Shown piece after piece: positions 7,126 to 60,699 of a DNA stretch of 64,000 nucleotides (position 1 is the stretch's first letter; each line of letters starts with the position of its first letter). Source of the stretch: a virus; the IMG/VR virus record IMGVR_UViG_3300031992_000005, positions 96,001 through 160,000 of that record, one strand, 5' to 3'. Both the position numbers and the translations under genes were made by a program. The notes under the pieces are model-generated. The model was not told where the DNA came from, made no database searches, and worked only from the letters and a program-made list of their open reading frames with translations.

Positions 7126-7139
7126 ATTTTTTTTTTCAA

Positions 7140-11738: not shown

Positions 11739-11756
11739 TGGGGACATTGCGTCCCC
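11739..11756. terminator. Bidirectional intrinsic terminator between convergent genes
   Basis: The GGGGAC-attgc-GTCCCC hairpin is flanked by A6 upstream and T10 downstream. Confidence 0.75.
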
Positions 11757-11763
11757 TTTTTTT

Positions 11764-14097
11764 TTATTGTTCAACTATAGTCCAACCATATTTTCCTAAA
11801 TAATAATTTCCCGTTCCCATCCAAGTGTCGTAGCCTGTAGAACCAGCTGGAACTGTTAAAGTACCATTGGACTTAATATAATAAAAGGTACTAGAACTTA
11901 TACTTGGGGCTGTAGTTGCAAGAGAAGTAATATTAACTAGATGAGTACAGTATTCGAATGCGTGGTTACCAATACTAGTCACTGAATTACCTATTGTAAC
12001 AGAAGTTAAAGAACTACAATAAACAAATGCATTAATTCCAATACTAGTAACTAAATCTGGAATTGTAATAGAGGTTAGAGAAGAACAACTTCGAAATGCA
12101 CCGGCACCAATACTAGTTACTGAATCTGGTATTATAACAGAAGTTAGAGAGGTACAACTTTCAAATGCAGCGCCACCAATACTAGTAACTGAATCTGGTA
12201 TTGTAACAGAAGTTAGAGAGGTACAAGTCCGAAATGTAAAATCACTAATACTAGTAACTGAACTAGGAATTGTAATAGATGTTAAAGAAGTACAATTATA
12301 AAATGCACTATTACCAATACTAGTAACTAAATTTGGAATTGTAATAGATGTTAAAGAAGTACAATTATAAAATGCACTACTACCAATCCTAGTAACTGAA
12401 TCTCCTATTATGATAGAAGTTAGAGAAGTACAGTTTTGAAACGCATAATTATCAATACTAGTAACTGAACTAGGAATTGTGATAGAAGTTAAAGAAGTAC
12501 AACCATTAAATGCACTATTACCAATACTAGTAACTGATTCTGGAATTGTGATAGAGGTTAAAGCAGAACAATCACTAAATGCACTACTTCCAATACTAGT
12601 AACTGAACTTGGAATTATAATAGAAGTTAAGGAAATACAACCAGCAAATGCATTATTATCAATACTAGTAACTGAATTTGGAATTATAGTGTTCTTACAA
12701 CCAGTAATTAATTTATTACTAGATTTTCCTATAATTGCGTTACAATCATTTCTAGAGTCATAATAAGAATTATTTGGATCAACTACTATTACTTCAATAC
12801 TACTGCATCCATAAAATGCATACTGACCAATATTAGTAACTGAACTAGGAATTGTGATAGAAGTTAAAGAAGTACAACCATTAAATGCACTATTACCAAT
12901 ACTAGTAACTGATTCTGGAATTGTGATAGAAGTTAGGGAAGTGCAGCTCTGAAATGCCTGACCACTAATACCAACAACCGAATCTGGAATTATTACATCT
13001 AAGTTTATACCTCTATAACGATAGACTATGTTATTTTTTATACATAACCCGTCAATCTCCAAATCTATTATAGTAGCTCCCCAATAACTGTACACTGTCT
13101 CATCAAGAGAGCTATTATTAACAAAATTATTAGATAAAAATAAGCAACCAGCAAATGCACCCTGACCAATACTAGTGACTGATTCTGGAATTATGATAGA
13201 AGTTAATCCAGTACATCCAGCAAATGCACCACTACCAAGACTAGTGATTGAATCTGGAATTGTAACGGAAGATAAAGAAAAACAATTATTAAATGCACCA
13301 TTACCCATACTAGTAATTGAATTACCTAGCGTAAGACTAGTTAGTTCATGACAGCCAGAAAATTCTTGTCCACCGATGGCAGGAACGGAATCTCCTATAA
13401 TTAATGTTTTTAATTTTCGACAAAAACTAGAACCATTAGAACTAAAAATACCTGATAATGGCGCTTGTGCATTATAATTAATATACTCTAAATTAATACA
13501 CCTAGCAAATGCACCACTAAGACTAGTAACTGATTCTGGTATTGTAATAGAAGTTAAAGAAGTACAACTACTAAATGCACCATAATTAACCTCAATTACT
13601 GATTCTGGTATTGTAATAGAAGTTAGAGAAGTACAATTCTGAAATGCACTATTATTAATTTTAGTAACACTACTTCCGATAACAAGATTAACCAGTTTAG
13701 GACAATTATTAAATGCACCATTAGTAATAGTTGTTACAGAATCTCCTATGATTGCTGTTACAAGTTCTGGAGAATTAGAAAAAGATGAATTACTAATACT
13801 AGTACACAATTTACCTATTTCAGCTTTAACACAATTACTATTATATTCACCCAGTCCGGATGCAGTTAACTCACCTTCGCCCTCTATTTCAATAACACTT
13901 CCATCTATTAAGGTTAATTTGCAGAATCCTTCATAAGGAGGTTCTTCGCTATCACCCCCCCCCCCTTGGCCGATTAGGTCTTCACTATTAAGTGATGGGA
14001 AGTAGTCACTCTTAGTCTTCTTTTTCACATTTGAATAAATATATTCACTTAGTGTATCCCCACCTAATTCATGAGAGAAACAATCATTTACATTCAT
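11764..14097 (-). CDS. BspA-type leucine-rich-repeat (LRR_5) protein, putative tail fibre/receptor-binding protein, class I N-terminal module
   Basis: About 25 repeats of the type SLTSITIPxSVTSIGxxAFxxCT. The N-terminal MNVNDCFSHELGGDTLSEYIYSNVKKKTKSDYFPSLNSEDLIGQGGGGDSEEP is shared with ORFs at 51953, 57309 and 59707. The C-terminal NGTLTVPAGSTGYDTWM..GWTIVEQ is shared with 51953. Confidence 0.8.
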   Translation of the reverse strand: MNVNDCFSHELGGDTLSEYIYSNVKKKTKSDYFPSLNSEDLIGQGGGGDSEEPPYEGFCKLTLIDGSVIEIEGEGELTASGLGEYNSNCVKAEIGKLCTSISNSSFSNSPELVTAIIGDSVTTITNGAFNNCPKLVNLVIGSSVTKINNSAFQNCTSLTSITIPESVIEVNYGAFSSCTSLTSITIPESVTSLSGAFARCINLEYINYNAQAPLSGIFSSNGSSFCRKLKTLIIGDSVPAIGGQEFSGCHELTSLTLGNSITSMGNGAFNNCFSLSSVTIPDSITSLGSGAFAGCTGLTSIIIPESVTSIGQGAFAGCLFLSNNFVNNSSLDETVYSYWGATIIDLEIDGLCIKNNIVYRYRGINLDVIIPDSVVGISGQAFQSCTSLTSITIPESVTSIGNSAFNGCTSLTSITIPSSVTNIGQYAFYGCSSIEVIVVDPNNSYYDSRNDCNAIIGKSSNKLITGCKNTIIPNSVTSIDNNAFAGCISLTSIIIPSSVTSIGSSAFSDCSALTSITIPESVTSIGNSAFNGCTSLTSITIPSSVTSIDNYAFQNCTSLTSIIIGDSVTRIGSSAFYNCTSLTSITIPNLVTSIGNSAFYNCTSLTSITIPSSVTSISDFTFRTCTSLTSVTIPDSVTSIGGAAFESCTSLTSVIIPDSVTSIGAGAFRSCSSLTSITIPDLVTSIGINAFVYCSSLTSVTIGNSVTSIGNHAFEYCTHLVNITSLATTAPSISSSTFYYIKSNGTLTVPAGSTGYDTWMGTGNYYLGKYGWTIVEQ

Positions 14098-14113: not shown

Positions 14114-15472
14114 TTAATTCATTGTTACTTTTATCCAGCCTCCTGGTAATGAGTTCATCCAGGTATCATAGCCTCTAGCACCTTGCGGAACATATAATGT
14201 ACCGTTAGGACAGATGTCTTTAAATGGGTTAAAGCCACTTGGGAAAGTTGGTGCAATTGCTGGTTTTGCTACTATTTCACATAAGTTACTACAATAAACA
14301 AATGTATCTTGACCAATAGATGTAATACTACCAGGTATTATTATACGAGATAAACCTGCACATCCAAGAAATACACCATGATCAATAGTAGTCAGTGAAC
14401 TATATTCAGGTAAATTAATTTCAATTAGCCTGTAACAATGGGAAAATGCATAAGAACCAATACTACTTAGATTATCCCCTAAGACAACTTTTTTCAAACC
14501 ACCACAACCATCGAACTTATCACCGGTGATACTAGTGACACCTTTTAAGACTACTGTTTCCAATGTATTAATTGCTCTGAAAAATCCATATTCAATACTT
14601 GTCACGGAATCCCCTAAGATTAATGTCTCTAGAGTTCTATGATTACCAAAAGTTTCTGTACTGAAATTAACCTGTGCATCATAATTAATATACTTAATAT
14701 TTGCACAATTCTTAAACGCATTACTTCCAATACTAGTAACTGAATGTGGAACTGTTATGTTAGCTAGGTTTGTACATCCGTCAAATGCATTATCTCCAAT
14801 ACTAGCTACTCCATCCTCTATTACTACATCAGTTAAGCTAGTACAACCTTGAAAGGTGGAGCTATTAATATTAGTTAACTTACCAGGGATTTCTATACTA
14901 ATTAAGCTAGTGCAGCCATAAAATGCACTACTACCTAAGGTAGTTAGATTCTTAGGCAACCTCACATTAACTAAGCTATTACAATTATATAAAGCCTGAT
15001 CACCAATACTAGTAACGGTATTAGGTATTACCACCTTGGTTAAATTATTACATCCATATAATGCAAATTTACCTATAGAAGTTACACCATCAGGTATAAT
15101 TAATTCCACCAATGCACCACTAAAGAAAATTGGAGCTGTCCCGCCCAAAGTGCCACTTGGATTAGTCAATTCAAACCTAATTGTATGTATTCCTGTAGTA
15201 TTAAAGGTATAGGTTACTACTATAGGATTATCCCCCGTTTGAAGTACTCCATCAATTTCAGTAGCTTTAATCACATCAGGTCCAGTATAACCAGATGTTA
15301 TAACAGTAGGTGAAGTAGTACTAGTGACATTATACTTACCTATCATCCATGCACTAGGCTTATTATAATGTACCTCATTTTCTGCTTCACAGTATACTAC
15401 ATTAGGTCCTTGGATGCTATCTTTTTGTTCTTCATACTCGGTATGAGTATTAAATTTCTTTAAATATTTCAT
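14114..15472 (-). CDS. BspA-type LRR protein, putative tail fibre, class II N-terminal module
   Basis: LRR_5-type repeats are present (VTSIGxxAFxxCxxL). The start is set at MKYLKKFNTHTEYEEQKDSIQGPNVVYCE because it aligns with the N-terminus of ORF 55986 (KYFNLFDSHNDYISAKNNLKKPNISYCE). The ORF-track start 15571 would run into the upstream gene's end. Confidence 0.75.
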   Translation of the reverse strand: MKYLKKFNTHTEYEEQKDSIQGPNVVYCEAENEVHYNKPSAWMIGKYNVTSTTSPTVITSGYTGPDVIKATEIDGVLQTGDNPIVVTYTFNTTGIHTIRFELTNPSGTLGGTAPIFFSGALVELIIPDGVTSIGKFALYGCNNLTKVVIPNTVTSIGDQALYNCNSLVNVRLPKNLTTLGSSAFYGCTSLISIEIPGKLTNINSSTFQGCTSLTDVVIEDGVASIGDNAFDGCTNLANITVPHSVTSIGSNAFKNCANIKYINYDAQVNFSTETFGNHRTLETLILGDSVTSIEYGFFRAINTLETVVLKGVTSITGDKFDGCGGLKKVVLGDNLSSIGSYAFSHCYRLIEINLPEYSSLTTIDHGVFLGCAGLSRIIIPGSITSIGQDTFVYCSNLCEIVAKPAIAPTFPSGFNPFKDICPNGTLYVPQGARGYDTWMNSLPGGWIKVTMN

Positions 15473-15518
15473 ATTAGAAAAAATAGAGCAACTCTCTCTC
15501 AAGTTGCTCATTTTAATT

Positions 15519-15905
15519 TTATAGTAAGTTCGTAAGTTTTTCAAAAAGACGATCGAGTTTAGCCATATCAAGAAGAGCCGTATAGCCTTTATGTGCTATT
15601 ACTTTTCCCTTGAACTGAACTAATGGATACATACCACCATCCCAGATATCAAGTCGTCTTTCATCAGGGATATATACGATTTCGCCCAGAGGGGTTTTTC
15701 TATGATCCTGACTACGAATTACGTATTTATATACATCGACACCTTCTGCGATTAGCATTGTTAATGTATTTAATCCAAACAATATCTTTATATTATCATA
15801 GATGGATTTTACTTTAAGGGCATTCTTATGCGTTTCATCCTTAAAGAATCCTGTAACATTCTTAACTTCCGCAAAAGGTAATCCTTGATAACTAAGCCTT
15901 AACAT
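15519..15905 (-). CDS. Hypothetical protein
   Basis: ORF in an operon-like minus-strand array. No motif recognised. Confidence 0.65.
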   Translation of the reverse strand: MLRLSYQGLPFAEVKNVTGFFKDETHKNALKVKSIYDNIKILFGLNTLTMLIAEGVDVYKYVIRSQDHRKTPLGEIVYIPDERRLDIWDGGMYPLVQFKGKVIAHKGYTALLDMAKLDRLFEKLTNLL

Positions 15906-36600: not shown

Positions 36601-38106
36601 ATGATAAATTCACGGAATTATAAATTTAAGATCAATGTAAGCGCAGAAGCTTATACTAGTAAAATAGAAGCTAGAGCCTGTTTAACGCAAGAAAGTGCCA
36701 AAAAAATTGGAAGATCCAAGATGGCATTTAAAGAACAGTGGTTAACTGTAGATGAATTTCTAGAAAAAGCTACATCAGGTTATTGTTTCTGTAATATCTT
36801 TGAATTTGATCCTAATGTAATGTACAAGATATCAACAAGTCGCTCTAAAGTTTGGAAGATCTATCCAGTTTATAAAACCGGAGTTAACGCGGGTTGTATG
36901 AAATTAGGATTCAAAAGAGATGAGTTCTTTAAGGAAAGTTATGCGGTTTTTGTTGATATAGATTCCACCAGATTTCAGAGAGTTGATGCTTATATTAATA
37001 AGTTAACTTTTAAGCCAACTTGCGTATACATGTCTTATAGTGATGGTCTTGAGAAAAATGAAGTCACTAGTAGAAGATTTCACTTAATATATGTATTTGA
37101 TTCTCCCTTAGGAAAGCAAGATTTTCTTAAAGTATCTGAAATAATAACAAGGCAAATAGAAGAGGATACTGGGGAAATAGTTGAAGATTACTGTGGAACT
37201 AGACTCAGCCAATACATGAATGGTTGTTTTGGAAATCAAGAAGTGTACAAAACATACCTAGTTTATTCAATCTTAGATATCTTAGAGAAAGCAGAAAAAT
37301 TTTCTATTCCAATTATTGTCAAAGAAAAGCCTTCAATTAGTTTTAATGAATGGGTACTTATCGATTTTGATAATTTTGAAGAAGAGGAATTTAAATCAAA
37401 GCCTTGTTGGATAAACTGTTTGAGTACTTATACTTATCTTTGGAGAATAACAAAACCTGAATGGATCAATGGTGCTTATCAATTTGTTGATCCTGGTTAC
37501 TTTAGGCTTTTTTTCTATCCAGAAAAAGTTGAGGATGGAAATAAAAGAAGAAGAAAGCTATATGAAAGAATGTGTCTCAGGCGAATTATGAAGCCAGAGA
37601 TAACATCAGAGGAATTACAGTTTAATACAATAATGGATGTGCTTAAGTTTTTCGATAATAGCGATAGAGTAATAGATTCGGATTTTATTAAAAGAAATAT
37701 TACAAATTGTTTTAGTTATTCTGTTGAAGAGTTAATAGAACAATATTCTACAGAAATAGAATATCTTAGAAAAATATTCTATCCTAGGAGAGGAATTATT
37801 TATAGAACAAGATCTCATCATACCAGAGATATTACTTGGTGTATCCTAGATGAAATGTTTAATGATAATTTATCAGTTAGGGAAAATTTTGAAAATATTA
37901 ATAATGATGGATTTCCTATTAGTTTGAGATCTTTATATGATTACATAAATGATAGGGGTATTGTTATTAAAGGAAAAATAAGAGATGATGAATTACAAAA
38001 CCTAATTAATCCTAATTTATCGGGAAGAGAAAATTATAAGCTTTTAAGGGAGAAAGGATATAAAGTAGATATTCGAAGAATTAATGAATTACTAAAACGT
38101 AAATAA
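36601..38106 (+). CDS. Putative AEP-superfamily primase / replication initiator
   Basis: AVFVDIDSTRF is DxD-like and TSRRFHLIYVFDSPL is sxH-like, arranged as in archaeo-eukaryotic primase/prim-pol catalytic modules. The gene lies immediately upstream of the iteron array. The assignment is tentative. Confidence 0.4.
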   Translation: MINSRNYKFKINVSAEAYTSKIEARACLTQESAKKIGRSKMAFKEQWLTVDEFLEKATSGYCFCNIFEFDPNVMYKISTSRSKVWKIYPVYKTGVNAGCMKLGFKRDEFFKESYAVFVDIDSTRFQRVDAYINKLTFKPTCVYMSYSDGLEKNEVTSRRFHLIYVFDSPLGKQDFLKVSEIITRQIEEDTGEIVEDYCGTRLSQYMNGCFGNQEVYKTYLVYSILDILEKAEKFSIPIIVKEKPSISFNEWVLIDFDNFEEEEFKSKPCWINCLSTYTYLWRITKPEWINGAYQFVDPGYFRLFFYPEKVEDGNKRRRKLYERMCLRRIMKPEITSEELQFNTIMDVLKFFDNSDRVIDSDFIKRNITNCFSYSVEELIEQYSTEIEYLRKIFYPRRGIIYRTRSHHTRDITWCILDEMFNDNLSVRENFENINNDGFPISLRSLYDYINDRGIVIKGKIRDDELQNLINPNLSGRENYKLLREKGYKVDIRRINELLKRK

Positions 38107-38110
38107 TACA

Positions 38111-38213
38111 ATGCAACAAATGTTACATTGGAATGCAACAAATGTTACATCAGAGTTTAATTAAAAAAGAACTATGCAACAAATGTTACATTAGGATGCA
38201 ACAAATGTTACAT
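38111..38213 (+). repeat. Four direct copies of the 18-mer ATGCAACAAATGTTACAT, arranged as two pairs
   Basis: Copies lie at 38111-38128, 38133-38150, 38174-38191 and 38196-38213. Spacing within pairs is 22 nt and between pairs 63 nt. Confidence 0.95.
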
Positions 38214-38223
38214 TAATGGTTTA

Positions 38224-38356
38224 ATGTTACAAATTCAAAAATATGTTACAAATTCAAAAATATGTTACAAATTCAAAAATATGTTACAAATTCAAAAATA
38301 TGTTACAAATTCAAAAATATGTTACAAATTCAAAAATATGAAATTTTGTAACAAAT
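38224..38356 (+). repeat. Six perfect tandem copies of the 19-mer ATGTTACAAATTCAAAAAT plus an inverted core copy
   Basis: Copies start at 38224, 38243, 38262, 38281, 38300 and 38319. The core TGTTACA is shared with the 18-mer repeats. TTGTAACAAAT at 38346-38356 carries the inverted core. Confidence 0.95.
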
Positions 38357-38381
38357 AAAAAAATCGCTAAATAAAAGATAG

Positions 38382-38527
38382 TATAATATATATTATTAAA
38401 TATAAATATAATAAATAATATAATATATATAATTATTATTAAATATAAATATAATAATTAATATAATATAAATAATATAAATATAATAAATATAAATATA
38501 TATAATATAATATAATATATATATATA
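38382..38527. other. 146-nt tract of pure A/T; candidate DNA-unwinding element
   Basis: There is no G or C between 38382 and 38527. The tract is built from ATAATA/TATAAA-type short repeats and lies directly after the iteron-like arrays. Confidence 0.6.
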
Positions 38528-38638
38528 CAACACCAACCAACCTTTAATCTTAAATTGCAAAAACGCATCACCTTTATAAAACACTGAAATAGAAGGACTT
38601 AAAGCCTTACTTATGTTTATAAATTTAAAATAAGGGTT

Positions 38639-39487
38639 ATGATATTTACAGTATTAGAACAGATGTACAAATGTGGATGTGAAAAGGGCGTAGCAGACCT
38701 AATATCTGAAGGAATACTAGACAAGATCAATGATTTAGCTGAATGGGATTTATGTAGATTCCCTTCTAAAGAAATTGAAAGACGTCAGATTACATTTCCA
38801 ATCTATCTTGATGAGACTGGAACAGTATCTGCCGAATCTAAAGTAGAAACAAAACCCATCTATGAAGAGAATAGGAAGTTCTTAGGAGAGACACCAAAAC
38901 TTGCTCCCGGGAATTGTATCTTAGTAGATGGGCAGGTTATTGCAATAGATAGGCCGGATAGATTAGTCCTAGTTGTGTCCAAGACTGGTGGAAGAGCATT
39001 GACTAGAATTTACGATGAGATCATAACTCCTGAGTATGAGTTGTACCATAGTAAGAATACATCTCTTAAGTTTACTTGGGATTCACCTGGAGTAGAAATA
39101 CCAAAGGAATTTGATGGGGAATATAGAGTTCCTTATTCTAAGTATAAATATTGGAAGGAGTTTTTTGTTAGGGGAAGAGATCTCACTCCAGACCCTAATG
39201 GAAACTTGGCAATCTTAGTTAATATAGATTATATATTTCCGGTAGAACTATACTTTACTCCTTGGACGGTTAAGTTTAAGAAAACTGATTTCGAAGAAGG
39301 GGAAGAGTCTTTGGTTGAATATCTTGTAGATTCTGTTCTTCGGGATTTTTGTGTAGGATATACAAGACTTGTGAACCCATTAGGAGAATTTCCAACTCCA
39401 GCTGAACAAGTACAGAGATTATTGGAGTTTGACAAGCAGGTTCAGATTAATCAATTCAAGCTAATGAATGGAGCAAAAAATTTATAA
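38639..39487 (+). CDS. Hypothetical protein
   Basis: 282-aa ORF. No motif recognised. Confidence 0.7.
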   Translation: MIFTVLEQMYKCGCEKGVADLISEGILDKINDLAEWDLCRFPSKEIERRQITFPIYLDETGTVSAESKVETKPIYEENRKFLGETPKLAPGNCILVDGQVIAIDRPDRLVLVVSKTGGRALTRIYDEIITPEYELYHSKNTSLKFTWDSPGVEIPKEFDGEYRVPYSKYKYWKEFFVRGRDLTPDPNGNLAILVNIDYIFPVELYFTPWTVKFKKTDFEEGEESLVEYLVDSVLRDFCVGYTRLVNPLGEFPTPAEQVQRLLEFDKQVQINQFKLMNGAKNL

Positions 39488-51894: not shown

Positions 51895-51952
51895 ATAGAA
51901 CTTTCCTAGAGTGATGAAAATTTCACTCTAGGATTTTATTTTTACTTAAATT

Positions 51953-53467
51953 ATGAATGTAAATGATAGTTTTTCCCATAAACTTGGGGGAGATACACTG
52001 AATGAGTATATTTATTCAAATGTGAAGAAGAAGGTGAAGGAGGATAAGTTTCCTGCTAAGAATAGTAGAGACCTAATTGGAGATGGTGTAGTAGATGAGG
52101 ATATGGGCGAAGCTATAGAGCCAATTGATCCTATTAGGTTTGTTGCAAAGGTTAACGTAACTGACACATCAAGTCCTACTAAACTGTTTAATAATCCAAG
52201 TAATCTGGCGGCAATCGAGATAGATGGTGTTGTGTATGAAGGTAATGATATATCTAGTAATCTTAATCATACCTTTGATAGTGTTGGAATACATACAGTG
52301 AAGTATACACTTAAAGATGGAATGACTACTATTAATGATGGCAGTTGTTTTCAATTTATAACTGCCTTAGTTAGTATAACAATACCAGAAAGTATTACTA
52401 GTATTGGTGGTGGTGCATTTAGTAGTTGTTATTCTTTATCTTCCGTTACAATTCCTGGTTCAGTTACTAGTATTGGTAGTGGTGCATTTGGTAGTTGTAC
52501 TTCCTTAACCTCTATTACAATCCCTGGTTCAGTTACTGAGATTGGTGGTAGTGCATTTAGTGGTTGTACTAATTTAACAAATGTAGTAGTAAGTGATTAT
52601 GAAGGTGGTAATACAACTATTACTAATGCTGCATTTTCAGGTTGTACTGGATTAGTTTCCCTGATTTTGGGAAATTCCGTGACAACTATTACTAATTCAG
52701 CATTTGCTAGTTGCGCTGGACTGGTTTCCTTGACATTGGAAAATTCCGTGACAACTATTAGTAATGGTGCATTTAATGGTTGTATTAGTTTAGCTAAAGT
52801 TAATATTCCCAATTCTGTTATTAATCTTAGTAATAGTCCATTTGCAGGTTGTATTCGACTGACTAGATTAACAATACCTAGTTCCGTTGTTCATTTAAAT
52901 AATATTGGAGGACATTTTAAGTTTAATGATATTAAATTTAGAACAATTAATCCGGATGCTGATTTTACCCGTGATGCTACAAATAAAGTAATCCTTGATA
53001 AGACGGGTACTATATTATTATGGGGATTCGAAGATACAGTAGCAATTCCGAATACAGTAACTAGTATTGGTCAGAGAGCATTTAGTGATTGTACTTCTCT
53101 AACTTCCATTACAATACCAGATTCAGTAACTAGTATTGGTGAGTATGCATTTCAGAAGTGTACCTCCCTAACTTCTATTACAATTCCTAGTTCAGTTACT
53201 AGTATTGGTGGTAGTGCATTTTATAATTGTACTTCCCTAACCTCTATTACTATTCCAGGTTCAGTTACTAGTATTGGTAGTCAAGCATTTTATAGTTGTA
53301 CTTCTCTAATTTCTATAACATCATTAGCGACAACTGCTCCGACGATTAGCTCTTATACTTTTTGGGAAATCAAATCTAATGGTACTCTAACAGTCCCTGC
53401 CGGTTCTACAGGTTACGATGCCTGGATGGAACAATTACCTAGTGGTTGGACTCTAGTTGAGCAATAA
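51953..53467 (+). CDS. BspA-type LRR protein, putative tail fibre, class I N-terminal module
   Basis: The N-terminus is MNVNDSFSHKLGGDTLNEYIYSNVKKKVKEDKFPAKNSRDLIG. LRR_5 repeats are present. The C-terminal ATTAPTISSYTFWEIKSNGTLTVPAGSTGYDAWM..GWTLVEQ is homologous to the C-terminus of 11764-14097. Confidence 0.8.
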   Translation: MNVNDSFSHKLGGDTLNEYIYSNVKKKVKEDKFPAKNSRDLIGDGVVDEDMGEAIEPIDPIRFVAKVNVTDTSSPTKLFNNPSNLAAIEIDGVVYEGNDISSNLNHTFDSVGIHTVKYTLKDGMTTINDGSCFQFITALVSITIPESITSIGGGAFSSCYSLSSVTIPGSVTSIGSGAFGSCTSLTSITIPGSVTEIGGSAFSGCTNLTNVVVSDYEGGNTTITNAAFSGCTGLVSLILGNSVTTITNSAFASCAGLVSLTLENSVTTISNGAFNGCISLAKVNIPNSVINLSNSPFAGCIRLTRLTIPSSVVHLNNIGGHFKFNDIKFRTINPDADFTRDATNKVILDKTGTILLWGFEDTVAIPNTVTSIGQRAFSDCTSLTSITIPDSVTSIGEYAFQKCTSLTSITIPSSVTSIGGSAFYNCTSLTSITIPGSVTSIGSQAFYSCTSLISITSLATTAPTISSYTFWEIKSNGTLTVPAGSTGYDAWMEQLPSGWTLVEQ

Positions 53468-57308: not shown

Positions 57309-58484
57309 ATGAATGTAAATGATTGTTTCTCCCATGAATTAGGTGGAGATACTTTAAGTGAATATATCTATTCAAATGTGAAGAAAAGAACAAAAGGAGA
57401 TTACTTCCCAGCTAAAAATAGCGAAGACCTGATCGGAGAAGGGGGAGGGGGAGATAGTGAAGAACCCATAGAAACTGTACCTAATAATATGATTAGGTAT
57501 TATGCCCCTGAAATATTACCAGAAACAACAAGTAATAAAAATGTAGGAATTCACATTAATGCCTTCAATACTACTGTTATCTCACATACATTTGAAGATG
57601 GGGTTGGTATAGTAGAATTTGAAGGAGATGTAACAGATATTGGAGATAAGGCGTTTTATCAATGTGGAAATATAACAAAATTAGTCTTACCAAAAAGTAT
57701 AACTAGTATTGGGAATAGTTCTATAAGTGGCTGTCAAAAATTAATAAGTATTAATATTCCAAACGGTGTTACTAGTATTGGTGATGGTGCGTTTCATTAT
57801 TGTTGGAGACTGACTAAGATCATAATTCCAACTAGTGTTACTAGTATTGGTAGTAGTGCATTTAGTCAAGATTTTTTTTATGTAGGTAATTTCATTAATA
57901 ACAGTTCTCTTGATGCAGAAGCTAATAACTATTGGAAAGCTACTTTAGCGGATATTGAAATGAACGACGGTATATTAATGAAAAATAATGAAATTGTATT
58001 GTTTAGAGGTAATAATACGGATATTATAATACCTAGTGGTGTAACTAGTATTGGTGAGTATGCATTTAGTGGTGATTCGTATGGTGGTGGTGATCTTGTA
58101 AGCATAACAATACCAAACAGTGTTACAAATATAGCTGCTTCTGCATTTAATACTTGCAAAAGTTTGACTAGTATAACAATTCCTAATTCTGTAACTAGTA
58201 TTGGTTATAATGCATTCGGTGGTTGTAGAAACATGACAGCAGTAGTTATTGGAACTAGTGTAACTGATATGGGTGAAATGGTATTTTGTGATTGTAATAA
58301 TTTATCTAGTGTAACAGTATTAGCTACAACTCCACCCACACTTGGGTCATATCATGGTCAATACTCGAATTTTTCTAATACAAACGATTGCCCTATCTAT
58401 GTTCCAGCTGCCAGTGTAGATGCGTATAAATCTGCCCAAGGCTGGAGTACCTATGCTAGTAGAATTCAAGCAATTTCAGAATAA
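57309..58484 (+). CDS. BspA-type LRR protein, putative tail fibre, class I N-terminal module
   Basis: MNVNDCFSHELGGDTLSEYIYSNVKKRTKGDYFPAKNSEDLIGEGGGGDSEEP is nearly identical to the N-terminus of 11764-14097. LRR_5 repeats are present. Confidence 0.8.
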   Translation: MNVNDCFSHELGGDTLSEYIYSNVKKRTKGDYFPAKNSEDLIGEGGGGDSEEPIETVPNNMIRYYAPEILPETTSNKNVGIHINAFNTTVISHTFEDGVGIVEFEGDVTDIGDKAFYQCGNITKLVLPKSITSIGNSSISGCQKLISINIPNGVTSIGDGAFHYCWRLTKIIIPTSVTSIGSSAFSQDFFYVGNFINNSSLDAEANNYWKATLADIEMNDGILMKNNEIVLFRGNNTDIIIPSGVTSIGEYAFSGDSYGGGDLVSITIPNSVTNIAASAFNTCKSLTSITIPNSVTSIGYNAFGGCRNMTAVVIGTSVTDMGEMVFCDCNNLSSVTVLATTPPTLGSYHGQYSNFSNTNDCPIYVPAASVDAYKSAQGWSTYASRIQAISE

Positions 58485-59706: not shown

Positions 59707-60699
59707 ATGATTATAAACGATAATTTTACAAGTAATTCTTGTGGGAACAATGTTCTAACAGAATATTATTACGATAAAGTAAGGCGTCATCTTAAGGGTG
59801 ACTACTTTCCTCCAAAGAACAGCGAGGACTTAATTGGTTATGTCGCTGGTGAAGGGGAAGAAGGTGAAGGTGAAAATAATGGCCCACAATTATTAGATTA
59901 CCTCTTCACTGATGGAACTTTCGGTTCTGAGATTGGAGATAAGGTGCCAGTTGGTATATGTGTAGCCCCTGCCAGTCATTTTGCTGATGGTAAGGCTAGA
60001 TTTATGTCATTGAAAGAAATGTCGGCCAGTGATACAGCTGGAACCACTGAACATACTAGCCTAGGATGGGGAACTGCTAATACAGATGCTGGTTTGACTA
60101 AGTATTCATCTGTGGCAGTTGTTGACAGTGAAGGTGCACTTAAAGGTGTTAACCAGAATTATGGTTTTATTCCTTCCAAGAGAGCTGAATGGAGTTCTGC
60201 TTCACAGCCGGCAGCAAGACCAGTTGAAGGAGTATATTATGCAGGTAATATGGACCCTAATAATCCATCTCCTTATCCATTCTTGGCTGATGGTTCATTA
60301 AATCCCGATTATTCTGCTACAGAATTTGATGGTTCGCCAATTGTGAATATGCTGAGTGATGTCAATGGTGCTGCAAATACTACAACCTTGGTAGGTTTGG
60401 GCAGTGATTATGTAGCTGCCAATGCATGTCATAATTTCGCCCCAGGAGTACATGATGGAGAATGGTATCTCCCAGCAATAGGTGAGCTTGGATATATGAT
60501 AGCATTATACGATGACATTAATGCTAAGATTACAGCTGCTGGAGAAGGTAATGGAGTTGTAGTTGCTCCTAGTAACTTTTATTGGTCTTCTACTGGGGTT
60601 AGTGAGAGTGGTGCTTGCAATCTGCGTATGAATAACGGTTACGTGGGCAACCTCGATAAGACGGGTACGCCTTACGTTCGTGCCTTTTTAGCTCTATAA
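59707..60699 (+). CDS. Tail-fibre-like protein: class I N-terminal module plus DUF1566 (Lcl-like) C-terminal domain
   Basis: The N-terminal MIINDNFTSNSCGNNVLTEYYYDKVRRHLKGDYFPPKNSEDLIG is homologous to the class I module. The C-terminal GEWYLPAIGELGYM...FYWSSTGVSESGA...YVRAFLAL fits the DUF1566 pattern (W.LP...EL ... yWSS ... vR). Confidence 0.7.
   Translation: MIINDNFTSNSCGNNVLTEYYYDKVRRHLKGDYFPPKNSEDLIGYVAGEGEEGEGENNGPQLLDYLFTDGTFGSEIGDKVPVGICVAPASHFADGKARFMSLKEMSASDTAGTTEHTSLGWGTANTDAGLTKYSSVAVVDSEGALKGVNQNYGFIPSKRAEWSSASQPAARPVEGVYYAGNMDPNNPSPYPFLADGSLNPDYSATEFDGSPIVNMLSDVNGAANTTTLVGLGSDYVAANACHNFAPGVHDGEWYLPAIGELGYMIALYDDINAKITAAGEGNGVVVAPSNFYWSSTGVSESGACNLRMNNGYVGNLDKTGTPYVRAFLAL

Follow-up and report, generated by a model that had tools for sequence, protein, structure and literature searches.

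A poly-G tract in a leucine-rich repeat protein gene of a rumen jumbo phage is a candidate contingency locus

We have analysed a 64,000-nucleotide stretch of viral DNA (hereafter the window; positions 96,001 to 160,000 of IMG/VR virus record IMGVR_UViG_3300031992_000005) and describe a run of eleven consecutive G residues (G11) inside one of its genes, a 777-amino-acid open reading frame (ORF) on the minus strand at 11764..14097. The predicted product is built from a shared N-terminal module (N-module), a Gly/acidic linker, a BspA-type leucine-rich repeat (LRR) solenoid of the LRR_5 type and a C-terminal cap (TLTVPAGSTGYDTWM...GWTIVEQ), and the run encodes part of the linker. We consider it reasonably probable that G11 is a contingency locus, at which slipped-strand mispairing would switch one of four paralogous proteins that carry the N-module.

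On the plus strand, the run is seen as eleven C residues at 13955-13965 (context ...tatcaCCCCCCCCCCCttgg...); the coding strand reads GGC CAA GGG GGG GGG GGT GAT, giving G Q G G G G D at residues 43-49, with the four glycines supplied by codons 45-48 (GGG GGG GGG GGT). The first-pass annotation had placed eleven uninterrupted G residues encoding QGGGG in this ORF, which is exact, and its impression of an AT-rich genome is borne out by the G+C content of the window (34%). Apart from G11, the 64 kb contain no G or C run of six or more; a first-order Markov model predicts approximately 7.3 of these, and about 0.003 of eleven or more. In the long ORFs of the window, 9.7% of glycine codons are GGG, and among 11 peptide runs of three or more glycines, repeated GGG is found only at G11 and at the paralogous site 57441-57452; the remaining nine are encoded by mixtures of GGT, GGA and GGC. 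The run is real and strongly non-random. Formation of an intramolecular G-quadruplex was considered and rejected, as there is a single G run only.

The consequences of a change in length were evaluated in silico. G8 and G14 keep the 11764-14097 ORF in frame. Addition of one G brings a TGA lying directly 3' of the tract (13952..13954, minus strand, out of GGT GAT) into frame, such that G12 reads GGG TGA and terminates at once with a 48-residue product; G10 reaches a stop 13 codons further on and gives a 60-residue product. The TGAT that follows the tract is also present in the related contigs L001, L002, L003, L015 and L020 (described below). As both shifted frames stop within 0-13 codons, the tract would act as a switch rather than give rise to a second long product. 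No conserved extended product of the dnaX or tail chaperone G/GT type was found in the shifted frames, where stops follow after 0 and 13 codons, and programmed frameshifting to a long product was rejected because these frames stop at once. Internal re-initiation after a frameshift in the window gene was also rejected, there being no in-frame Met for more than 200 codons. It had been proposed that gain or loss of one G would truncate the protein right after an anchor of about 50 residues; truncation after the module (at 48 or 60 residues) is indeed predicted, the module itself being shorter, at about 43 residues.

The N-module comprises residues 1-43 (MNVNDCFSHELGGDTLSEYIYSNVKKKTKSDYFPSLNSEDLIG; 13969..14097, minus strand) and stands at the start of four ORFs in the window: 11764-14097 on the minus strand, 51953-53467, 57309-58484 and 59707-60699. 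Compared with the copy in the 777-residue protein, the modules of the other three are 91% (57309), 78% (51953) and 48% (59707) identical. The paralogue at 57309..58484 (plus strand, 391 residues) has the same N-module and linker followed by LRR_5 repeats, and at the homologous position its codons are GGG GGA GGG GGA (57441-57452, GGGGGAGGGGGA), a G5AG5A pattern that confirms the earlier description of an interrupted tract at this site and that we presume to be a locked-ON allele. The 504-residue LRR paralogue at 51953..53467 (plus strand) joins the module to an acidic linker without a G tract. The 330-residue paralogue at 59707..60699 (plus strand) is divergent, has no tract, and ends in a weak, lectin-like Lcl_C match (PF07603, E=1.3e-4, below cut-off). 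Two of the three other module-bearing ORFs (57309 and 51953) are thus LRR_5 proteins. The module is rare, occurring in 9 of 1.84 billion representative proteins, and a profile search with it against the PDB gave no relative, only noise at E of at least 0.3. A single-sequence AlphaFold2 model of the 391-residue paralogue has a mean predicted local distance difference test (pLDDT) score of 59, with the N-terminal 92 residues below 50, and is uninformative for the module. It is common to four ORFs with different C-termini, and we regard it as a putative docking or targeting module.

Relatives of the locus were gathered from database proteins found with an N-terminal query, which retrieved five only, all 55-94 residues long, and then by way of neighbouring genes; a co-oriented LRR_5 gene immediately upstream (14114..15571, minus strand) served as the synteny anchor for finding orthologous loci. 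All relatives are short-read metagenome assemblies, and the study labels of the related samples (TONG22, STEW19, SHIW14) refer to rumen and buffalo. An uninterrupted tract is present at the same linker in ten related contigs, with lengths of G10, G10, G11, G11, G14, G14 and G16, the remaining three contigs ending inside the tract (L018, L006 and L024, each at least G11). L020, which is 100% identical to the window over 9,348 nucleotides, has the same in-frame G11; L015, from a 96.5% identical strain (88-kb contig), has G14 and an intact ORF of 730 residues, the difference from 777 residues corresponding to approximately two LRR repeats and one linker codon. G14 is also found in L005/L017 and G16 in L016, in both cases followed by degraded sequence and the contig end. 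In L003, G11 is in frame within an ORF of 94 residues. Two contigs carry G10 and are out of frame: L001, and L002, the orthologue of the 57309 paralogue. The comparison of the tract between related genomes, suggested in the first-pass annotation as a check, supports variation in length, from 10 to at least 14, and gave two out-of-frame consensus alleles whose downstream frame is open and conserved.

When one G is restored to L001, comparison with the window downstream of the tract gives 14 identical, 7 synonymous and 2 nonsynonymous codons; restoring one G to L002 leaves the frame open for 90 codons. The predicted OFF alleles are therefore intact, not decayed. Interrupted and pure tracts also occur as close pairs: the G5AG5A of 57309 corresponds with the G10 of its orthologue L002, and the G7AG3A of L022 corresponds with at least G11 in L024, the latter two contigs being 99.8% identical. 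Tract-less linkers are found in 51953, 59707, L004 and L014. Across twelve related loci (approximately 75 kb), no G or C run outside the linker tracts reaches seven, and in loci added later the sole further run of this length, the G7 of L022, is also at the linker. Five tract-bearing sequences have synonymous differences at 20 of the 32 module codons whose amino acid is invariant (62%), and glycine codons 12 and 13, taken as controls, vary between GGA, GGT and GGG; none of the five departs from GGG in its linker codons. The run is conserved as pure G, which suggests that selection acts on the run itself. Taken at the level of sequence, the alleles found in nature (ON, OFF with the downstream frame intact, and interrupted, locked forms) match the pattern of a contingency locus: an uninterrupted tract within an ORF beyond what composition predicts, premature stops on gain or loss of one G, and length polymorphism that includes OFF alleles of intact genes.

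Three of the relatives deserve separate description. The 94-residue ORF of L003 (147-431) is free-standing, consisting of the N-module, the in-frame G11 and a short tail, and is followed by an unrelated gene without a homologue in the window; it could represent a remnant that consists of the module only, or else a small functional protein. In L004 (1170-1216, compared with window 52080-52130), a 1-nucleotide insertion (gatgaAgga) in the acidic linker, at a non-homopolymer site, splits the orthologue of the 51953 gene, and an in-frame ATG directly downstream starts a second ORF. L013 is a contig of 637 nucleotides (1-637) with the same approximately 35 nucleotides at both ends, which may be circular or a repeat; it has a 51-residue ORF with the first half of the N-module only and no tract. 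More distant homologues of a 209-residue neighbour gene (L007-L012) belong to different phages without N-module genes. Megablast of the gene against phage records found nothing, tblastn of the first 96 residues (N-module and linker) against INPHARED (50,697 phage records) gave no match, and two IMG/VR scans and a scan of GTDB genomes with a degenerate 23-mer were likewise without matches.

We propose that slipped-strand mispairing during replication of this approximately 354-kb rumen phage would change the length of the tract. Lengths of 8, 11 and 14 would leave the gene ON, adding or removing linker glycines only, a change that a flexible linker should tolerate; any other length would yield a truncated product of 48-60 residues, a module-only peptide, and so be OFF. 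The phage population would then be a mixture of virions with and without this LRR protein, and the sister paralogues would be locked ON by interruption of the tract or, in other strains, would carry a tract of their own. The likely benefit would be bet-hedging in host adsorption or surface binding. Replication slippage as the cause, its reversibility, switching within a population and the receptor-binding role are all inferred.

Several observations weigh against this proposal. The length evidence consists of consensus alleles compared between contigs, from which a mixture within one population is extrapolated. Of the ten contigs with a tract, five break off within it or shortly beyond, and in two of these (L005 and L016) the sequence is degraded; sequencing evidently struggles here, and both G10 calls could be miscalls. 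The contig breaks are compatible with mixed lengths and are equally explained by sequencing failure. The tract-less L004, orthologue of the 51953 paralogue, has its linker frameshift at a non-homopolymer site, which shows that these assemblies contain frameshifts away from the tract as well. Relatives can do without the gene or replace it, its place being taken by a tract-less 247-residue cassette in L014 and by nothing in L019. The OFF alleles could be early pseudogenes, and the receptor-binding function is deduced from protein architecture.

Some of these observations lend themselves to a different explanation, in which GGGG is a passive flexible linker, every true allele is in frame and too stable to matter biologically, and the length differences stem from errors at homopolymers or from failed assembly of Illumina reads. 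The degraded sequence right after the tract in L005 and L016, the three contigs that terminate within it (L006, L018 and L024) and the L004 frameshift fit this explanation, as does the fact that the three contigs extending well past the tract with full-length ORFs (the window, L020 and L015) are all in frame; in addition, L002 and L022 are short, low-coverage contigs (coverage of 3.1 for L022). However, it does not account for a codon of 9.7% usage being repeated three to four times in every lineage while the neighbouring glycine codons and 62% of synonymous sites drift, and the two G10 calls, each with clean sequence behind it, were made in separate studies and in different paralogues. Moreover, a run of G11-G14 is intrinsically prone to slippage; to our knowledge, this holds for runs of this kind in every system measured. 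In phages, the measurements concern A runs of 9 (PMC12633550). We regard the artefact as unlikely, yet as the foremost alternative. A narrower version, in which the tract itself originates as a poly-G artefact at read ends, was rejected, since three contigs continue through it without disturbance into an ORF of full length.

A second explanation is that the N-module and the G-rich linker act mainly as a boundary of homology or microhomology at which C-terminal LRR cassettes are exchanged among paralogues and strains, with instability of the tract as a by-product. Homology between the paralogues does stop at the linker, and the slot between the upstream 485-residue LRR gene and a convergent 115-residue gene is a cassette hot spot, holding an N-module protein of 777, 730, 505 or 247 residues (the last, in L014, without a tract) or none, the gene being missing from it in L019. 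Furthermore, the cassette of L001 and L006, which resembles that of the window 14097 gene, occupies the slot of the 51953 gene. Against this, tract-less linkers lie at the same module boundary in 51953, L014 and 59707, so exchange needs no tract, and the purity of the G run is left unexplained. Exchange of this kind is compatible with a contingency locus rather than exclusive of it; as the explanation of the tract, we find it improbable.

Recoding at the level of expression is more improbable still. Here, slippage of RNA polymerase or the ribosome on G11 would produce full-length protein and the 48- or 60-residue peptide in a fixed ratio from one genotype, with some rescue of G10 genomes. The sequence G GGG GGG would permit re-pairing of tRNA-Gly in the -1 frame, and the natural 94-residue module-only ORF with in-frame G11 in L003 hints that a short module peptide may be tolerated or useful. 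On the other hand, the alternative frames end within 0-13 codons without a conserved extension, no downstream stimulatory structure was seen (no search for one was made), and differences in genomic length exist regardless. In transcriptome data, slippage insertions occur mainly at A/T runs and not at G/C runs (PMC5574713), which makes transcriptional slippage, named in the first-pass annotation alongside slipped-strand mispairing, the less likely route.

The contingency reading can also be taken further. One may picture a lineage of rumen jumbo phages of approximately 350-400 kb that carry LRR adhesin cassettes, each gated by poly-G at the junction with the 43-residue docking module, with the switch live, locked or absent in different paralogues according to strain and virion surfaces varying combinatorially. 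The 48-60-residue OFF peptide, to which the free-standing 94-residue ORF of L003 may be likened, would then be functional, for example in capping the docking site to exclude or admit paralogues, and the tract would be a breakpoint for cassette shuffling. We consider this extended scheme speculative and rather unlikely.

The product of the tract-bearing gene is a BspA-type LRR protein by homology. Pfam assigns LRR_5 (PF13306) with E=9.3e-172 and 562.6 bits, compared to a cut-off of 27.7, in six stretches, and LRR_5 and LRR_8 are the only Pfam families matched by the 777-residue protein. The PHROG families matched (35892 and 18805) are of unknown function, and the PDB relatives are bacterial cell-surface LRR proteins (4fs7, 4gt6, 4h09, and TpLRR, 6mlx). 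Against the phage database, the full protein matched only uncultured gut-phage LRR proteins, the best being from yak. A search of BFVD with the low-confidence AlphaFold2 model of the 391-residue paralogue returned unnamed, generic LRR proteins only. Homology to a tail-fibre family or fold was not found in Pfam, PHROG or the PDB, and no capsid, portal, tail or baseplate family is represented among the approximately 35 largest ORFs of the window, which covers 64 kb of the approximately 354-kb genome; the earlier label of tail-fibre gene is accordingly not supported. We describe the product instead as a putative virion-docked LRR adhesin, the receptor-binding role being suggested solely by its architecture of shared N-module and variable C-terminal domain. 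Its C-terminal cap is common to the 51953 and 14114 genes. A 69-nucleotide tandem array encoding the 23-residue LRR (11966..12685, minus strand; 10.4 copies, 79% match) is a second source of length variation in the gene. An exact-sequence look-up found the 777-residue product absent from the protein collection and nine of its neighbours present; yet L020 (4880-7213) carries a 777-residue call on DNA that is 100% identical.

Nine window proteins have exact copies on a 353,905-nucleotide contig of the Joint Genome Institute (JGI), which identifies the virus as a jumbo phage. Downstream of the tract-bearing gene, a bidirectional terminator-like hairpin (GGGGAC...GTCCCC, 11740..11756) with T/A runs on both sides separates its stop from the convergent 115-residue gene. 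The upstream LRR_5 gene is 485 residues long from TTG, or 465 from ATG, and is without the N-module. Just upstream of the 51953 gene, there is a further hairpin (cctagagtgatgaaaatttcactctagg) with a T-run at 51905-51932, which is kept upstream of N-module genes in L001, L003, L004 and L006. Gene starts in the region are without an obvious Shine-Dalgarno sequence and are preceded by A/T-rich stretches. The large ORFs of the window include an HNH endonuclease, topoisomerase II, SbcCD, an exonuclease, a CCA-adding enzyme and GroEL, and further ORFs encode a DNA ligase, an RNA-ligase/phosphatase, an IMPDH-like enzyme and a peptidase; no tRNA genes or Rfam families were found within the 64 kb. The longest A run of the window, A10 at 2108-2117, lies inside the HNH-endonuclease ORF (1071-2258) and is another potentially slippery coding tract; a T10 run is present at 7127-7136. 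An intergenic gap at 38106-38639 holds a perfect 19-nucleotide tandem repeat of 6.2 copies (ATGTTACAAATTCAAAAAT, 38224-38340) and AT-rich repeats (38371-38527), and could be an iteron- or origin-like region.

All but three of the database entries for this gene family are truncated at 55-94 residues or cut at a contig end. The tract is the cause, with the result that genes of this kind are systematically annotated wrongly and assembled incompletely in viromes. Poly-G phase variation of host-binding proteins is so far shown experimentally only in Campylobacter phages. The locus described here would be a second, unrelated instance, in an uncultured rumen jumbo phage, backed by natural length variants across independent metagenomes; if true, it would suggest that the poly-G strategy is general among phages with AT-rich genomes. 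The proposal is testable by counting tract lengths in existing public read sets.

Other routes to the same end are well separated from the one proposed here. The diversity-generating retroelement of Bordetella phage BPP-1 and the invertible G and C segments of Mu and P1 also let one genome give rise to a population that is heterogeneous in a host-binding protein, but by reverse-transcriptase mutagenesis and site-specific inversion, respectively, which are entirely different mechanisms; neither a retroelement nor an invertible segment was noticed in the genes scanned near the locus (no dedicated search was made). Bacterial contingency loci, such as those in surface genes of Campylobacter, Neisseria and Haemophilus, resemble our locus in three ways: a G tract of at least eight, without interruption, lies near the 5' end of an ORF for a surface protein, its out-of-frame alleles keep the reading frame open downstream, and relatives carry alleles that are locked by an interruption. 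Our locus differs in being viral, so that switching would be tied to the replication burst and would affect the composition of the virion, not the cell surface. In phages T2 and T4, contingency loci have been measured, homopolymer slippage in replication giving reversible frameshifts and bet-hedging (Gomez, Barrick and Waters, 2025 preprint, PMC12633550), and we propose the same process, slippage during phage DNA replication with reversible frameshifts, for G11. In T2 and T4, the tracts consist of 6-9 A residues, lie for example in agt and rIIA, and number hundreds per genome (PMC12633550), whereas the G run described here is much longer, stands alone and departs strongly from the base composition.

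The closest parallel is found in Fletchervirus, the Campylobacter phages in which two of up to four receptor-binding proteins are phase-variable via hypermutable poly-G tracts (Sorensen 2021, Cell Rep 35:109214, as described in PMC8713573, PMC10579305 and PMC11959909); a 2025 review terms poly-G phase variation of phage host-binding proteins "an exceptional case" (PMC11959909). The two systems differ in several respects. No sequence relationship was detected with the N-module query among 50,697 phage records, the present phage is a rumen jumbo phage of approximately 354 kb with an uncultured, non-Campylobacter host (possibly a rumen Bacteroidota), its binding domain would be a BspA-type LRR, and its tract lies exactly at the junction of module and linker; both switching and receptor binding are here deduced from sequence. 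As far as the cited descriptions of Fletchervirus go, the likenesses are nevertheless close: a poly-G tract within the ORF of one member of a protein set (up to four receptor-binding proteins there, four N-module paralogues here), a gain or loss of one G that would turn that member ON or OFF while other members of the set are constitutive, and G runs that are conspicuous against an AT-rich genome.

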